Positions 8,725 through 16,395 of a DNA stretch of 64,000 nt are shown piece by piece. The notes below the pieces were generated by a model, which searched no databases, was not told the DNA's origin, and was given only the letters and a program-made list of their open reading frames with translations. The position numbers and the translations under genes were made by a program. The stretch comes from a virus: the IMG/VR virus record IMGVR_UViG_3300009151_003928, positions 12,059 to 76,058 of that record; one strand, given 5' to 3'. The first letter of the stretch is position 1. Each line of letters opens with the position of its first letter.

Positions 8725-9501
8725 ATGTCTGATAATAAACTAGTAGAAGAAGCACCGTATCATCCCGGATACGAAGATGCCGCAATGGCAATGAGCGACA
8801 AAGGTTACGAAGAAGGTTACCTAGGTGATGCTATTCGCTTCAACATGAAGCGTGATAAGAAACGTTTCTGGGCCGGTGACAACATTAGCGATTACTTACA
8901 CGAAGGTGATAAGGAAATTTTAATCAACGAAGCCACAGAAGCTTTTGAAACAGTTTTAGATCGTCTGCTTATCGATCGAGAAAATGATCCTAACTCAAAA
9001 GGCACAGCTAAACGATTGGCTAAGATGTATTTTAACGAAATTATGGGAGGTCGATATGATCCGGCACCTAGCGCAACAGCTTTTCCAAATGATTCAGCGG
9101 ATAGATACGAAGGTATGTTGGTTGTTCGTAGCGAACTGCGTTCTATGTGTAGTCATCATCACCAGCCTGTGTCTGGTGTTGCTTACATCGGAATCATCGC
9201 CGCAAATAAACTTATTGGCTTGTCTAAATATACTAGGATCGCTCAGTGGTGTGCTCGTCGTGGCACACTTCAAGAAGAATTATGTAACGACATCGCAAGA
9301 GAAATAATGCGGGCTACTGAGTCAGAGAACGTGGGTGTGTATATACAGGCCACTCACGGATGCTGTGAGAATCGAGGCATTATGGCACACTCGAGTTTAA
9401 CACAAACAACAGTATTAAAAGGTGCTTTTAACACAGACCCAGGAACTAAAAAAGAGTTCATGGACAATATCAAACTACAACAGGACTTTGCCCCAAGATG
9501 A
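8725..9501 (+). CDS. folE: GTP cyclohydrolase I
   Basis: SMCSHHHQP, IGLSKYTRI, LQEE, HGCCENRG. Confidence 0.95.
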   Translation: MSDNKLVEEAPYHPGYEDAAMAMSDKGYEEGYLGDAIRFNMKRDKKRFWAGDNISDYLHEGDKEILINEATEAFETVLDRLLIDRENDPNSKGTAKRLAKMYFNEIMGGRYDPAPSATAFPNDSADRYEGMLVVRSELRSMCSHHHQPVSGVAYIGIIAANKLIGLSKYTRIAQWCARRGTLQEELCNDIAREIMRATESENVGVYIQATHGCCENRGIMAHSSLTQTTVLKGAFNTDPGTKKEFMDNIKLQQDFAPR

Positions 9502-10206: not shown

Positions 10207-12594
10207 ATGAAACGTAAACTGCTATACACACTGATGTTTGGCACCGTAATTGTGCTAACTGCCTGCGGAGGCGGAGGCGGAGGCGGAGGCGGAAGTCCAT
10301 CGTACGTTCAGCCTAGCACAAATGCTTCAATACAAACTGTTGCGAAATCAGTTAATCCTTTATCTGGCGCCGCCGGTTTTATATATTCCACTGTGAATAT
10401 GTACAATGCCGATTTAACCGGAAATGGCACTGATAATATTGTTGTAGCCGGATCAAGCACAACTAATACCAGTAGCGTCATGAAAGTGTTTGGTTGGTCT
10501 GGTACCAACTTAGTTGATCAAACTGCACAATGGTTTATCCCAGGCGATAATATTATTAGTCCTGGTGCGGCTAAACTGTCTTTTGGTAACTTTAACGGCA
10601 ACGGACGGCAAAGTATGTTTGTTGATCCAGGCACTGACAGTAATGGTGCTCCGGCAACTTCGGTATCTGTTTTTGTCAACAACGGCAGTCGGTTTACCAA
10701 ATATAGTATTGCACTATCACACTCACTGGATAGTATGGACAGTACTACCTTTACCTATAACGGCGTTGACAATGTCTTGGCCCTAGGCTATCCATACTCA
10801 CAGGCCATTATGGGAAGTACCACTAATGACTTTAGAGCTTACGCTGTCAGTAACTTGTCAGGTAGTGCTATTGCTAGTGGTAATTTCTTAGGCACAGGTG
10901 ATCCAAGTTTTGTAGTAGGACAATTTGGATCATCAATTACCTTGGGTGCGACTCCTAATGCATTAGTTGGATTCAGTCAAGACGCCGGAACCGGTGCAGT
11001 TACTACACCGTTTATTCGCAACTTGCCGGTTCCGCTATTTAATACAGCACCGTACTTTGCACAAACTGGCGGCAGTAATACCATCCGTGTTGTTAAATAC
11101 GACTTTGACGGCTCAGGCGCAGACAGCGTGTTTATTACTGCTATGCCAAACAACTGGCAACTAAGCCCATATCAATCTAGTATACAATTCCTCAAAAACA
11201 ACGGAGCTGGTATATTTACAGACGTAACACCGGCCACAGTATCCGGATATGATATGACCAAGGCCGCAAGTACAAATCCAATTATTGCCGACATTTATAA
11301 TACCGGTTTACCTGCAATTATATTACCAGCAACAAATGGTACACAGGTACTTGCACAAGTCAGTCGTGGACAGTATGTAGCAAGTATGGCCAATACTATT
11401 ACCACTTTCCAAAACAATGTTAATAGTTTGGTGGGTAGTAGCCTAGATACCCAAGGCGGAACTACTACTTTTGTTAAAGGGCCAAACAATGCCTTTTATT
11501 TATTAGATATGGTTCCACTAAATATGCCAGATGGTTCTAGTCAGAAGGGTTTTTATTTAACACCACTTAGCACCAGTACGGTTGCTACTAATGCTCAAAG
11601 CGCCATTAATCTTGCTCGTACCGTATGGCCTTGGTTAAATGACGTTCAGCTTAATGCAATGATTCGAGCAACAGGCACAAATTTTGCCGGCATAACTGTC
11701 ATTGACGAACAAGCATTATTTTCTCCCACTGGACCATTGGGTATATTTAATCGTCCTATCTCGGGTTATATTGCTGGTCTACAAACAGATGGTGCAGATT
11801 CACAATTAATTACCACTGATAGATTAGGTCGTACCTTTACCGCTAGCCTTGCTCCATTACATGCAAATGGGTGGACTAATTCATTTAACATGAACGGTGA
11901 GCACATTGACCAACATGAATTGTCTGGCCACACTGAATATTTAATTGCTGGTAATGTTAACAATGTTGGACCATTGCGTGTTGGTAGTGAAACTCGCAAC
12001 ATGTACAATACTGTTGGCAACGATCCCGGTGTTGGGCCTACACTAAATCAAATTAAAAATTATACAATCGGTATTCCTCGAATATGGGAAAAAGGAAATT
12101 GGTCAGCGGGCGCACAGTACACTACACTTAGTTATAATCCTTGGTTGGCATTCGGCGGCAGTTGGGGTATGGTCACCCAGACTGGCAACTTAGACCATAC
12201 TATCAGATATAACAATAAAGGCTTTACTGCTGTAGCCGGCGGCACGTATACTACTACAAATATCACACCAGGGTTGATTACCAAGGTAAATGATATCTAT
12301 GGTGTGTGGGGCGAAACTGGATATAAATGGGCAAACGACCTAGGTATCTATGCTGGTGTTAAACCTATTGCAATACGAGGAAATGTTGAAGCAAAGTTAC
12401 CAACTAGTGTTGACACCGGGGGTAATTTAGTGTATACTGGTAAAACATTAGCACTTCAGAATCAGACTACAGGATATTTAAGAGCACTTTGGACTACTAA
12501 CATTGATAAGAAAACTATGTATCGTATCAGTGGAACTGTAATGAGCAACGGGCAATCACGTATAATGAACGAATTGAGGTATTTCTTTGATTAA
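10207..12594 (+). CDS. Lipoprotein with FG-GAP/VCBS-like repeats and predicted C-terminal beta-barrel-like domain
   Basis: Lipobox LTAC then Gly9; repeats DLTGNGTD, NFNGNGRQ, NFLGTGDP, DFDGSGAD; amphipathic strands ending RYFFD. Confidence 0.7.
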   Translation: MKRKLLYTLMFGTVIVLTACGGGGGGGGGSPSYVQPSTNASIQTVAKSVNPLSGAAGFIYSTVNMYNADLTGNGTDNIVVAGSSTTNTSSVMKVFGWSGTNLVDQTAQWFIPGDNIISPGAAKLSFGNFNGNGRQSMFVDPGTDSNGAPATSVSVFVNNGSRFTKYSIALSHSLDSMDSTTFTYNGVDNVLALGYPYSQAIMGSTTNDFRAYAVSNLSGSAIASGNFLGTGDPSFVVGQFGSSITLGATPNALVGFSQDAGTGAVTTPFIRNLPVPLFNTAPYFAQTGGSNTIRVVKYDFDGSGADSVFITAMPNNWQLSPYQSSIQFLKNNGAGIFTDVTPATVSGYDMTKAASTNPIIADIYNTGLPAIILPATNGTQVLAQVSRGQYVASMANTITTFQNNVNSLVGSSLDTQGGTTTFVKGPNNAFYLLDMVPLNMPDGSSQKGFYLTPLSTSTVATNAQSAINLARTVWPWLNDVQLNAMIRATGTNFAGITVIDEQALFSPTGPLGIFNRPISGYIAGLQTDGADSQLITTDRLGRTFTASLAPLHANGWTNSFNMNGEHIDQHELSGHTEYLIAGNVNNVGPLRVGSETRNMYNTVGNDPGVGPTLNQIKNYTIGIPRIWEKGNWSAGAQYTTLSYNPWLAFGGSWGMVTQTGNLDHTIRYNNKGFTAVAGGTYTTTNITPGLITKVNDIYGVWGETGYKWANDLGIYAGVKPIAIRGNVEAKLPTSVDTGGNLVYTGKTLALQNQTTGYLRALWTTNIDKKTMYRISGTVMSNGQSRIMNELRYFFD
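10267..10293 (+). repeat. (GGAGGC)4 hexamer repeat encoding the poly-Gly linker
   Basis: ggaggc x4 plus gga read directly. Confidence 0.9.
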
Positions 12595-13048
12595 TAAACT
12601 ACTTAACTGGCTAGACAAGATTGGACGTAAACGTATTATTATGGATCGTATAAACGACGAACCATACCTAGAACGTTACTATGTATTCCTTAAGGATCGC
12701 GAACGTTTTCCCTTTAATGTGTTCTTACACAAGTTTCTCAAAAGCGATCCAGATGATGTGCATGATCATCCCTGGAACTATGCCACACTTATTCTCAAGG
12801 GCGGCTATTGGGAATGGATTCCGCAATTCAATCACGAAGGTAAAATGACCTGTGAAGTGGCAAAATGGCGTGGGATGGGACACTTTCGTATTTGTGATGC
12901 AACCAGTTATCATCGTATAGAAATAGATCCGGGGGTTGATACATGGACGCTGTTTATGCCCATGTGGAAAAGAAAAGATTGGGGTTTTTGGACTCGCAAG
13001 GGTTGGGTACAACACGAAGCATATTTACAATCAAGGGCAACAAAATGA
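12587..13048 (+). CDS. Cupin-like conserved phage protein
   Basis: HKF..SD....HDHPW...YWE...YHRI. Confidence 0.65.
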   Translation: MINKLLNWLDKIGRKRIIMDRINDEPYLERYYVFLKDRERFPFNVFLHKFLKSDPDDVHDHPWNYATLILKGGYWEWIPQFNHEGKMTCEVAKWRGMGHFRICDATSYHRIEIDPGVDTWTLFMPMWKRKDWGFWTRKGWVQHEAYLQSRATK

Positions 13049-13134: not shown

Positions 13135-13457
13135 TACAACTTCCGCCCGGTTGTTGTGTGGCATATGAAATTCGTTTTACTGTGGGAGAACTTACAGATG
13201 AAATTGGTGAATGGTTTAATATGATTGGTGGGACTGCTACTAAGAAACAGTATTGGGATCATCGAGGTCGCGAACAATTTACAGTTCATGTACAATACGG
13301 TAAAGCAAAACCTAGTCACAGATTAGCAAATGGCGAAGTTCATAATATTATAAGATTCGATGGCACAGATGCTAGTACTGCAAGCATGTTCTTGCTCAAG
13401 TTCATGGATCAAATCGTTTCACACAATTTAAAGGAAGCAGAACATTATGTCTATTAG
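13131..13457 (+). CDS. Hypothetical protein
   Basis: Start moved to ATG 13131 (MIQLPPGC). Confidence 0.65.
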   Translation: MIQLPPGCCVAYEIRFTVGELTDEIGEWFNMIGGTATKKQYWDHRGREQFTVHVQYGKAKPSHRLANGEVHNIIRFDGTDASTASMFLLKFMDQIVSHNLKEAEHYVY

Positions 13458-14010
13458 AAAAATATACTACAAAGAATCAACCGTCAGGGGTTGGGTACAC
13501 GAAATTGTTCGTGGCATGTCTGCAGACCAATGGCGACCAGACTACATTGTGGGACTCACCCGCGGCGGCCTAGTTCCTGCTACCATGCTAAGTCATTATT
13601 TAGATGTGCGTATGGAAACTCTTAAAGTAAGTTTGCGTGATGATAGCGAAATGGGCCCAGAAAGTAACTTGTGGATGGCCGAGGATGCGTTTGGATATGT
13701 AAGCACCGATGTTGTTCCTAGGCCGGCCAATTCCATTGCATCAGATCCTGCTACACGCAAGAACATTCTTATCGTTGATGATATTAACGATTCAGGTGCC
13801 ACGCTCAACTGGATCAAGCAGGATTGGCAAAGCGGGTGTTTGCCCAACGATTCTGGATGGGACAACATCTGGGGTTATAACGTTCGTGTTGCTGTGTTAA
13901 TTAATAACGAAGCAAGCGATTTTAAAGACGTAGACTATGTGGGGTTAACCATTAACAAAATGGAAGAACCTGTTTGGTGCGTATTTCCTTGGGAGGAGTG
14001 GTGGCATTAA
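13447..14010 (+). CDS. Purine phosphoribosyltransferase-like protein
   Basis: IVGLTRGGLVPA, LIVDDINDSGAT PRPP loop, VFPWE. Confidence 0.9.
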   Translation: MSIRKIYYKESTVRGWVHEIVRGMSADQWRPDYIVGLTRGGLVPATMLSHYLDVRMETLKVSLRDDSEMGPESNLWMAEDAFGYVSTDVVPRPANSIASDPATRKNILIVDDINDSGATLNWIKQDWQSGCLPNDSGWDNIWGYNVRVAVLINNEASDFKDVDYVGLTINKMEEPVWCVFPWEEWWH

Positions 14011-14363
14011 AAGATTTTTACCTAGACGAAACACTAGAATGGCATATAACCACACACCGAGAGTGGAATAGTTACTTGTCTAAAGAAACGGTCACCGACG
14101 AAGACCTGGTTGAAGTAATCAAAGGGCACGGTGGTTGTAGTATAACCGGCAGTGACGACGGTCCGGAGTTCAAAGCCCTACGTAACCAATTGGAAGAAAT
14201 GGGTTACATCAAATGTGAACGCAATTGGTGGAATGGTGATCGTGTGATAAGGACATTTCGATTAAATGGATTACGTTTTAAAAAAGACACACAATTTTCA
14301 TCTGGGGCGGCGTTAAAGTTTCATATGGATTTTTTAAGAAAACATCCGGAGTACGCAGAATGA
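13974..14363 (+). CDS. Hypothetical protein
   Basis: ORF track; exact start uncertain. Confidence 0.6.
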   Translation: MVRISLGGVVALKDFYLDETLEWHITTHREWNSYLSKETVTDEDLVEVIKGHGGCSITGSDDGPEFKALRNQLEEMGYIKCERNWWNGDRVIRTFRLNGLRFKKDTQFSSGAALKFHMDFLRKHPEYAE

Positions 14364-14515
14364 TACTTGTTGGAACATGGGTTGTTGTAGGATTCTTTAG
14401 TGCCATCGGGTGGTACGGTGCTAACTATTATGTTATTACTCCATATTTGCCTGAACCGGTGTTTAAAGAAAAACGAGTAGAAGAAACAAAACCAAAACAG
14501 GATGATGCTAAATAG
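14360..14515 (+). CDS. 51-aa membrane protein (not in ORF track)
   Basis: MILVGTWVVVGFFSAIGWYGANYY...; ATGA-coupled. Confidence 0.6.
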   Translation: MILVGTWVVVGFFSAIGWYGANYYVITPYLPEPVFKEKRVEETKPKQDDAK

Positions 14516-14530
14516 TATTATCCCACAAAC

Positions 14531-14594
14531 AGCGGCCTTCGGCGTTCATCCCGCTTTACAAACTCTGCCGCCTATGCTATAATTAACATAGGAG
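14531..14594 (+). ncRNA. Structured queD leader: preQ1-I-like H-type pseudoknot followed by an SD-occluding hairpin
   Basis: AGCGG/CCGCU stem; loop CGGC pairs with downstream GCCG; CCUAUG/CAUAGG covers part of AGGAG. Confidence 0.5.
14555..14583 (+). promoter_or_regulatory. Sigma70 promoter inside the queD leader
   Basis: TTTACA-17-TATAAT with extended TG. Confidence 0.7.
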
Positions 14595-14601
14595 ATCAAG
14601 C

Positions 14602-15102
14602 ATGAATCAAGCAATACAATACAAGTACACAAGTACAAAAGAATACCATAACGCATTTCCCTGCGCTTATCGTCAATGGCGTGCCGATAGTCATTGTAAC
14701 CTAAATCACGGGTATGCATTTAGTATGAAGTTCTATTTTGGAACTGATACACTAGATGTGCGTAACTGGGCGGCCGATTACGGTGGGCTTAAAGAACTTA
14801 AGGCCATCTTGGAAAGTCAATTTGACCACACTACCTTGGTAGCACAAGATGATCCAGAACTTGAATTCTACAAAGAAATGGAACGTCGTAAGTTGGCCAA
14901 ACTAACTATACTGCCAGCATTGGGTTGTGAAGCACTTGCTGATCAACTGTACAAATTTATCAATGGTGTTTACATTCCAGATAACTGGGGACCGGGCGAA
15001 GCTAGTCGACTTTGGTGTTATCGTGTGGAAGTTCGTGAAACACAAAGCAACATGGCTTTCCGTGAAGGCCATCGTGAATGGAATGAAGATCTATTTGCTT
15101 AA
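14602..15102 (+). CDS. queD: 6-carboxy-5,6,7,8-tetrahydropterin synthase
   Basis: SHCNLNHGY, DYGGLK, FDHTTL, GCEAL, VRET. Confidence 0.9.
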   Translation: MNQAIQYKYTSTKEYHNAFPCAYRQWRADSHCNLNHGYAFSMKFYFGTDTLDVRNWAADYGGLKELKAILESQFDHTTLVAQDDPELEFYKEMERRKLAKLTILPALGCEALADQLYKFINGVYIPDNWGPGEASRLWCYRVEVRETQSNMAFREGHREWNEDLFA

Positions 15103-15259
15103 AGTATGGAGACTTTGGGCAAAAGCCCTAGGTGAAAAAACAGGTAATACGGATGCAGAAGCAGACCGTATTGCTTGCATTCGTAGTGTAATTGTGTTAA
15201 TATACATTGTTACAAACTTTTTTATAATTGCGGGCGTATTACGACATTGGAATGACTGA
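15083..15259 (+). CDS. Small conserved phage membrane protein
   Basis: WRLWAKALGEK...NFFIIAGVLRHW. Confidence 0.65.
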   Translation: MKIYLLKVWRLWAKALGEKTGNTDAEADRIACIRSVIVLIYIVTNFFIIAGVLRHWND

Positions 15260-15521
15260 TAAAATAAATGAAATTCTAGATATCCTCCAGGAGGAGTGTG
15301 CCGAAGTAATTGTTGCCATTAGCAAGATTCGCCGATTTGGAATTGACAACACATATAAAGATGGCGGAACACAACGTGAGCACTTGGTTCAAGAGCTTGG
15401 TGATGTTACACTACTAATTGAATTGCTTCAAGCACACGGTGTTTACACCGAACAAGAACTAATCAACGCACAACGCCGAAAGGCAGTAAAATTAACTAAA
15501 TGGTCAAAGATATATGAGTAA
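15252..15521 (+). CDS. MazG-like NTP pyrophosphohydrolase
   Basis: LQEECAEV...QELGDV. Confidence 0.8.
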   Translation: MTDKINEILDILQEECAEVIVAISKIRRFGIDNTYKDGGTQREHLVQELGDVTLLIELLQAHGVYTEQELINAQRRKAVKLTKWSKIYE

Positions 15522-16395
15522 AATCAAAATAGCAGAATTATTTTATAGCATACAAGGCGAAGGCCGTTACATGGGTGTACCAAGTGTTTTCTTGCGTACA
15601 TTTGGATGTAATTTTAAATGTGCTGGCTTTGGTATGCCACGTGGCGAATCTAGCCACGAGGCTACTGATATTGCGGCCACACACAAAATGATTGAGTCTT
15701 TTCAAAAGTATGAAGACTTGCCCTTAGTTAGTACAGGCTGTGACAGCTATGCTAGTTGGCATCCAGACTTTAAAGACCTGAGTCCAATGCTTGAAAGCAA
15801 CGCTATTGTTAATCGAATTATGGAAATACTTCCACATAAACGTTGGGAAGAAGAACATTTGGTTATTACAGGTGGTGAACCATTACTAGGGTGGCAACGT
15901 GCTTATGAAGATTTGTTAGAACATCCAAGTATGTGGCGGTTGCGTGAAATTACATTTGAAACAAACGGAACTCAACGATTGTCCGATGACTTTAAAAAGT
16001 ATTTGTTTAAATGGTTAAAAGATGAACACAAAGAGTCCGTTGGTGCTACTAGTCCGCGAGTGATTACATTTAGTGTAAGTGCTAAACTACCATGTTCAGG
16101 CGAATCGTGGGATGAAGCAATTCTACCCAAGGTTGTTTGCGAATACGAATGGTATGGTACAGCATATCTTAAATTTGTTATTGCTAACGAAGCAGATTTT
16201 AAAGATGCTGAGTGTGCCATTGCGGCTTATCGCAAAGAAGGATTTAAAGGACATGTTTACTTAATGCCAGTAGGTGGTGTGGAAAGTGTGTACGCAATGA
16301 ACAATAAGAATGTAGCATTGTTGGCTATGAAAAACGGACTACGCTATAGCGATCGATTACAAGTTCCATTATTTAAAAATGAGTGGGGTACTTAA
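15514..16395 (+). CDS. queE: 7-carboxy-7-deazaguanine synthase (radical SAM)
   Basis: ELFYSIQGEG, FLRTFGCNFKC, CDS, ITGGEP, ETNGT, LKFV, RLQ. Confidence 0.9.
   Translation: MSKIKIAELFYSIQGEGRYMGVPSVFLRTFGCNFKCAGFGMPRGESSHEATDIAATHKMIESFQKYEDLPLVSTGCDSYASWHPDFKDLSPMLESNAIVNRIMEILPHKRWEEEHLVITGGEPLLGWQRAYEDLLEHPSMWRLREITFETNGTQRLSDDFKKYLFKWLKDEHKESVGATSPRVITFSVSAKLPCSGESWDEAILPKVVCEYEWYGTAYLKFVIANEADFKDAECAIAAYRKEGFKGHVYLMPVGGVESVYAMNNKNVALLAMKNGLRYSDRLQVPLFKNEWGT

Follow-up and report, generated by a model that had tools for sequence, protein, structure and literature searches.

Translational ON riboswitches for purines, such as the adenine riboswitch of Vibrio vulnificus add, rely on a ligand-stabilised aptamer that withdraws a strand sequestering the Shine–Dalgarno (SD) sequence or the start codon. 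Three classes of preQ1 riboswitches are known, all of them cellular, and every one characterised so far is an OFF switch (PMC11625349). The defining features of preQ1-I have been reviewed for its types I to III, with B. subtilis queC, T. tengcongensis, C. antarcticum and E. coli as examples; the specificity cytosine is found directly 5′ of the P1 3′ strand, where it follows a U in type I and an A in types II and III (PMC11625349). Phages carry riboswitches as well: glutamine (glnA-motif) riboswitches regulate phage genes in marine myophages and were called rare (PMC9004378). The phage riboswitches reported so far are members of cellular families.

Here we describe a small RNA pseudoknot in the 70-base queD leader of an uncultured jumbo phage, a structure which about 150 different phage sequences keep by means of compensating base changes. 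The window, i.e. the whole 64 kb stretch of DNA that was analysed, is part of a 76 kb fragment (~22% complete) of this uncultured virus. The regulated gene (14602–15102, 166 aa) encodes a QueD-like 6-pyruvoyl-tetrahydropterin synthase according to both Pfam (PTPS, 1.6e-12) and PHROG (2389, QueD-like, 5e-35), and its ribosome-binding site (RBS, 14590–14604) comprises an SD sequence AGGAG at 14590–94 and the start codon ATG at 14602–04. The leader elements discussed below lie, like queD, on the plus strand. In our model the queD 5′ leader would contain a cis-acting riboswitch-type aptamer, a compact H-type pseudoknot made of P1 (14531–35/14551–55) and P2 (14541–44/14569–72), the junction of which would be lined by near-invariant unpaired bases: NCU in L1, UCAYC up to C14550 in L2, and the A-rich tract and UCUGC in L3. 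That this element is a genuine conserved cis-regulatory RNA structure seems to us practically certain, and it is likely that it senses a ligand; to the full explanation, a translational ON riboswitch, we assign a probability of about 0.6. The candidate keeps the preQ1-I scaffold with a different pocket consensus, and its wiring would be reversed. No publication on this element, or on a phage queD or preQ1-like riboswitch, was found in the literature.

Helices, loops and distribution of the queD leader element

Judged from a single sequence the leader is unremarkable. The minimum free energy (MFE) of 14516–14604, calculated for nested, pseudoknot-free folds, is −13.6 kcal/mol compared to −13.5 ± 2.8 kcal/mol for shuffled sequences (z = −0.03), no better than chance, and the reality of the element therefore had to be judged by comparing homologs. 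A QueD-anchored scan of IMG/VR yielded 80 loci with 84–94% amino-acid identity, some of them on contigs of 200–353 kb. In most of these loci the 130 nt upstream of queD contain the element, with compensatory changes visible.

The initial annotation had proposed a preQ1-I-like pseudoknot with a P1 helix formed by AGCGG (14531–14535) and CCGCU (14551–14555), a 15-nt loop ending in a C just before the P1 3′ strand, and the linker TTACAAACTCT. Each of these parts is present, the loop ending at C14550, and the covariation analysis of homologous queD leaders which the same annotation had suggested as a check revealed that both P1 and P2 covary. The H-type fold, the 5-bp P1, the invariant C and the A-rich L3 have thus stood up to comparison; the P2 register originally put forward has not. 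P1 was assessed on the covariance-model alignment, in which it is 99.6% paired among 49 distinct homologous sequences. Three of the five pairs show changes on both sides (AU/UA; GC/CG/UA; CG/AU/UA). The same evidence applies to both strands: the P1 covariation score was equalled in none of 500 shuffles, and slid controls were paired to 40–60%.

P2 is formed by GGCG (14541–14544) and CGCC (14569–14572); its strands correspond in the homologs to those directly 5′ of L2 and directly 3′ of the UCUGC sequence. This register was set by covariation on a gapless alignment of 39 columns and 91 distinct sequences, which was anchored on the invariant core rather than on structure. P2 is 81.8% paired in this set, compared to 53.8 ± 1.7% for shuffles and 27–49% for slid strands, and the covariation of 0.677 (versus 0.256) was matched by none of 500 shuffles. 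All five pairs show both-side changes (128 cells), and the duplex energy of the native partner was better than that of permuted partners in 2000 out of 2000 trials. Variants include GGCA/UGCC, GGCU/AGCC, GGUG/CACC, GACA/UGUC, GACG/CGUC, GGCAU/AUGCC and ACGAC/GUCGU. The helix is short, just 4 bp in the window, and has a bulge or a mismatch in several homologs. The P2 initially read from the single sequence, CGGC (14540–43) with GCCG (14567–70), amounts to a slide of −3; the two strings exist, but at this register pairing drops to 48.8% and covariation to 0.162, i.e. it is not conserved. Similarly, an alternative helix GCGGC (14532–36)/GCCGC (14567–71) that was thought to exclude P1 can form in the window but finds no support as a conserved feature. 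In its general form, pairing of the P1 5′ strand with CUGC, this helix was rejected: it is 83.7% paired versus 83.6% in shuffles, and changes in P1 are not compensated in it.

About 20 near-invariant unpaired bases are clustered at the P1/P2 junction. L1 (CCUUC, 14536–14540) measures 4–7 nt across homologs, and its first three positions represent the conserved N-C-U; in the seed alignment of 15 sequences, C10 never varies and T11 is shared by 90% or more. L2 (UUCAUC, 14545–14550; consensus UCAYC) ends at C14550, the place occupied by the specificity cytosine in preQ1-I. In the QueD-anchored alignments the C directly before the P1 3′ strand is invariant, while the base preceding it is mostly U, often C and rarely A. 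L3 (14556–14568) consists of the A-rich tract UUACAAAC (14556–63) followed by a near-invariant UCUGC (14564–68), with the consensus W-W-A-Y-A-A-A-Y, then UCUGC. Across 50 QueD-anchored sequences the L3 columns A31, A33, A35, T37 and C38 show no variation, and T39, G40 and C41 are each shared by 90% or more. Conserved unpaired bases of this kind, including an invariant C, would be typical of a ligand pocket.

The element occurs in one copy per genome and is tied to queD. A covariance model of 49 positions (R1), built from 15 gapless sequences with P1 alone annotated, gave exactly one strong match (27–73 bits) in 69 of the 81 QueD-anchored sources, and each of these matches lies immediately 5′ of queD. 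In the 64 kb window the single match covers 14528–14576 with 67.4 bits. Five large relatives (200–353 kb, three of them at least 95% complete) have one convincing R1 match each (E ≤ 1e-8), the remaining matches in these genomes staying below 15 bits with E ≥ 0.017. Scanning IMG/VR with a motif pattern uncovered at least 120 further loci, and a QueD homolog is found downstream of the motif in 117 of the 120 listed, some of these proteins being only 36–60% identical to the QueD of the window. Clearly more than a hundred genomes of uncultured phages, mostly from fresh water, carry the candidate switch.

The same pattern produced at least 120 matches in 185,579 cellular genomes, of which, among those listed, one combines P1 with the platform; the others listed look like chance matches, mostly inside genes. 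The exception (L267; CAIJZG010000025.1) is a 5.9 kb contig in a metagenome-assembled genome labelled Bacteroidetes, and among the matches listed it is the only record of the cellular collection with a complete leader, of the design called type C below. It probably represents a phage contig binned into the assembly and would be a weak hint to the host at most. With this one exception among the matches listed, the element was found on phage contigs only.

Among cultured-phage records no real nucleotide match was obtained with 1.3 kb around the element or with leaders of 77 and 85 nt. The best one, an unverified 'Listeria phage' contig, was discarded: it lacks P1, and R1 gave it 14 bits. Five cultured phages among the closest QueD matches (ACP17, R5C, X1, PhiXhv-15 and Bhz51) have no leader: queD overlaps the gene before it or begins no more than 30 nt after it, which leaves no room for a leader. 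Nine close QueD homologs from our scan (L005, L022, L057, L060, L062, L064, L065, L074 and L079) are leaderless as well, queD directly following another gene, and no copy turns up with the model within some 3 kb of them. The existence of close QueD homologs without a leader indicates that the switch is dispensable in some lineages.

Comparison with preQ1-I aptamers

The queD leader element resembles preQ1-I in several respects. Both are small H-type pseudoknots with a 5-bp P1 topped by a G-C pair and a short P2, and both helices covary in the queD leaders. A cytosine directly precedes the P1 3′ strand, mostly after a U, which in part fits the type I dinucleotide. An A-rich L3 follows P1, and the downstream gene, always queD, is one of the 7-deazaguanine pathway.

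There are also clear differences. The A-rich 8-nt tract is not joined directly to P2, the near-invariant UCUGC being interposed, and the latter is without counterpart in the published description of preQ1-I (PMC11625349). L1, with 4–7 nt starting N-C-U, and L2 with its UCAYC consensus are likewise unlike preQ1-I. Moreover, P2 does not contain the SD sequence, which lies 18 nt downstream of it; instead, the P2 3′ strand is the anti-RBS strand, and the switch is expected to be ON rather than OFF.

The initial annotation had noted that loop and linker depart from the canonical types, and this agrees with the outcome of the Rfam comparison it had advised. An Infernal search with RF00522 (gathering score 39 bits, a cut-off which the positive control exceeded in one of 14 control genomes) did not match the element at E ≤ 10, whether window positions 14300–14700 or the complete 76 kb record were searched. 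Elsewhere in that record the model matched unrelated sites only, with about 11 bits. In a scan of window positions 14300–14700 by E-value against Rfam, the sole match was a chance match of 10.7 bits to a lncRNA model. None of 20 homologous loci matched an Rfam family at the gathering threshold. By these tests the queD leader element resembles a preQ1-I-type aptamer in its architecture and is not a member of the family.

This bears on one alternative, a canonical preQ1-I riboswitch (RF00522) that senses preQ1 and represses queD. Such an assignment would account for the H-type pseudoknot, the 5-bp P1 closed by G-C, the C before the P1 3′ strand, the A-rich L3 and the queuosine-pathway gene downstream. 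We nevertheless consider it very improbable, given the failure to match RF00522 or, at the 20 loci, any Rfam family, the additional UCUGC in L3, the non-consensus L1 and L2, a P2 devoid of SD sequence and the predicted opposite polarity. The gene content is a further argument against it, QueC and TGT having escaped detection in two of the three relatives that are at least 95% complete. The glnA-motif riboswitches of phages provide a second contrast. They belong to a known cellular family and are seen by standard scanners, whereas no cellular counterpart of the queD leader motif was found among the matches listed.

Pairing of the ribosome-binding site and promoters

The P2 3′ strand shares nucleotides with a helix that covers the RBS, and this is realised in three leader designs, which we call types A, B and C. 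In type A, to which the window belongs, the P2 3′ strand YGCC leads into CCUAUG, followed by a loop and CAUAGG-AG, and the resulting hairpin covers the AGG of the SD sequence. In the window this hairpin (14571–14592) pairs CCUAUG (14571–76) with CAUAGG (14587–92); C14571 and C14572 are at the same time the last two bases of P2 and the first two of the hairpin. The MFE fold of the window contains the inner five pairs (14572–76 with 14587–91), and all six are formed in most other type A leaders, where the variants CCUAUA/UAUAGG, CUCUAUU/AAUAGAG and CCUGUG/CAUAGG also occur. In type B the P2 3′ strand is AUGUCGU; it overlaps UGUCGUC, the pairing partner of GAUGGCA, i.e. of the start codon and the bases following it. 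In type C the P2 3′ strand AUGCC overlaps GCCAUUG, and the pairing of the latter with CAAUGGC places a helix over the start codon. When 149 distinct leaders are folded to their pseudoknot-free MFE, 141 of them have two or more nucleotides of the P2 3′ strand paired with the region from the SD sequence to AUG+4.

Since the P2 3′ strand serves as the anti-RBS strand in all three designs, the pseudoknot and sequestration of the RBS are mutually exclusive. The leader thus joins a conserved aptamer to a platform with mutually exclusive pairings, which is one of the general criteria for a riboswitch. Formation of the pseudoknot should free the ribosome site, which is the logic of an ON switch. We propose that without the pseudoknot the RBS would be sequestered, by CCUAUG/CAUAGG over the SD sequence in the window and by the start-codon helix in types B and C, and that stabilising the pseudoknot would let P2 withdraw the anti-RBS strand and so turn on queD translation. 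Withdrawal of the P2 3′ strand in silico raised the mean predicted unpaired probability of the SD sequence from 0.40 to 0.70. The effect on the SD sequence was from 0.37 to 0.72 in type A and from 0.34 to 0.68 in type B. The start codon opened from 0.04 to 0.30 in type B and from 0.05 to 0.47 in type C; in type A it is predicted not to open (0.51 to 0.28). From this modelled wiring we infer a translational ON switch in vivo, a logic which is unusual for a biosynthetic gene.

The proposed ON logic is the same as that of the add riboswitch, which differs from the queD leader in being built on a three-way junction rather than an H-type pseudoknot and in having an unrelated ligand and gene class. 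The same aptamer could on the other hand be wired as an OFF switch. A bound pseudoknot 20–35 nt upstream of the start codon might block standby binding of the 30S subunit, or the pyrimidine-rich L1 and L3 (YCUU, YUCU) might capture the SD sequence as in the class III and type III preQ1 switches. Repression is what every characterised preQ1 riboswitch does (PMC11625349), YCUU in L1 and CUCU or UUCU in L3 are by direct reading complementary to AGGAG, and the start codon of type A stays closed when the P2 strand is withdrawn. We still regard an OFF switch as decidedly improbable, because the P2 3′ strand shares nucleotides with the RBS-sequestering helix in those 141 leaders, in three unrelated designs, and because the predicted accessibility of the SD sequence goes up when P2 forms.

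The ON switch we favour requires a transcript that contains the aptamer. The initial annotation had attributed such a transcript to a late-like CTAAATA at 14508–14. This sequence is present, and the TAAATA motif within it (14509–14514) is a candidate T4-late-like phage promoter, TAA(A/G)TA being found at most 30 nt upstream of P1 in 84 of 97 distinct type A leaders. However, the hexamer is under-represented in the window (63 found, 95 ± 10 expected), so that it is its conserved position alone that argues for a promoter. The scarcity of TAAATA would be in keeping with selection against a hexamer that resembles a promoter. A sigma-70-like −10 sequence, often with TTGACA 17 nt upstream, ends 4–10 nt 5′ of P1 in 18 of the 39 type B and 14 of the 20 type C leaders, which would put the aptamer at the 5′ end of the transcript.

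The observation that TTTACA (14555–60) might also serve as a −35 sequence proved right, and the case is stronger than first put. Together with a spacer of 17 nt and an extended −10 sequence, TGnTATAAT, it forms a putative sigma-70-type promoter (14555–14583) with 11 of 12 consensus matches in addition to the TG. The pattern T(T/A)TACA, N17–18, TAnAAT recurs in 84 of the 97 type A leaders, and all 59 leaders of type B or C lack it. A transcript from this embedded promoter would start near 14590 and would contain neither the aptamer nor the sequestering strand. Phages of the window type, in which the promoter lies within L3 and the hairpin, would hence probably make two queD mRNAs, a long regulated one and an additional short one that is unregulated. 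Contigs from RNA libraries of four studies span the leaders of relatives into queD, although transcript starts and strand cannot be read from such contigs, which may include DNA; the contigs covering the region have no common place where reads begin or end. A second sigma-70-like site (TATACA, 16 nt, TATAAT) is located at 15201–15228, between queD and the MazG-like gene, and the genes downstream of queD may have their own promoter there.

Because of the embedded promoter, part of the conservation of L3 and of the hairpin loop in type A could reflect selection at the DNA level. Carried to its extreme, this would reduce the whole element to DNA, namely a sigma-70 promoter whose −10 sequence is enclosed by a palindromic operator, CCTATG...CATAGG, and a weak terminator for the upstream gene. 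A near-consensus promoter maintained in 84 of 97 type A leaders and hairpin arms that flank the −10 sequence in operator fashion speak for such a view. We find it hardly credible as the sole explanation: the compensatory changes in P1 and P2 can be explained only by RNA pairing, types B and C retain the aptamer without an internal promoter or palindrome, and a scan of the embedded promoter region found no terminator-like site.

Candidate ligands and pathway genes

The covariation in P1 and P2 proves a structure and not the binding of a ligand, and a structured leader without a ligand has to be considered. Such a leader could affect translation, either constitutively or depending on temperature, or mRNA stability, or could serve as the operator of a phage or host RNA-binding protein, for instance a QueD protein that autoregulates its synthesis. 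The lack of a match to any known RNA family and a phage context rich in uncharacterised proteins speak for such a leader. We consider it unlikely, since some 20 near-invariant unpaired bases at the P1/P2 junction give the layout of a small-molecule aptamer, the exclusive link to a metabolic gene persists across QueD homologs that are 36–60% identical, and a platform with alternative pairings is a hallmark of riboswitches.

If the leader is indeed a ligand-dependent ON switch, the invariant C suggests that this ligand pairs through a guanine-like face. The pseudoknot would then most likely be stabilised by a small molecule of this kind: a 7-deazaguanine intermediate, guanine, or a pterin such as the substrate of QueD. 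ON logic would suit a precursor, i.e. dihydroneopterin triphosphate or a guanine or GTP signal; CDG, preQ0 or preQ1 of the host may also be the ligand.

The genes of the phage fragment give this some context. They include FolE (8938–9471), a purine-PRTase-like gene (13447–14010), QueD (14602–15102), a MazG-like pyrophosphohydrolase (15228–15521) and a QueE-like radical-SAM protein (15514–16395). Neither TGT nor DpdA was found in the fragment or in the five large relatives. QueC was not found in the fragment or in three of the five, including those that are 100% and 95% complete, and the matches to QueC in the remaining two are weak and partial. With no TGT found, and no QueC in two of the three relatives of at least 95% completeness, it is not obvious that the phage would produce preQ1. 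The gene set suggests a DpdA-independent route to a 7-deazaguanine, possibly operating at the level of the nucleotide pool, which may stop at CDG.

Tentatively, and at somewhat less than even odds, we would go one step further and propose a phage-restricted riboswitch class, preQ1-I-like with a pocket enlarged by UCUGC, that activates queD translation on a guanine-faced metabolite other than preQ1. Candidates would be the pathway precursor, either as 7,8-dihydroneopterin triphosphate or as a GTP- or guanine-derived signal, both amounting to feed-forward control, or CDG. The switch would gate a 7-deazaguanine pathway of freshwater jumbo phages that lacks DpdA and, in the majority of the complete relatives, QueC too.

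If true, this would be the first ON-type riboswitch of a deazaguanine or pterin pathway. The candidate switch, if confirmed, would add a ligand-gated control point to phage 7-deazaguanine metabolism. It would also provide a natural case of a minimal pseudoknot aptamer re-tuned in both specificity and polarity, and RNA engineers would gain a compact ON-switch part of ~45 nt. FolE, QueD, QueE, the purine PRTase and the MazG-like protein occur here without DpdA, and two of the three near-complete relatives yielded no QueC; such a gene set suggests a way of making modified guanine nucleotides that has yet to be described, and the queD leader switch may pace it. Just upstream of the PRTase–queD cluster there is a further, unusual auxiliary gene, the ORF 12587–13048, which matches PHROG 4786 'cysteine dioxygenase' (4.8e-33).
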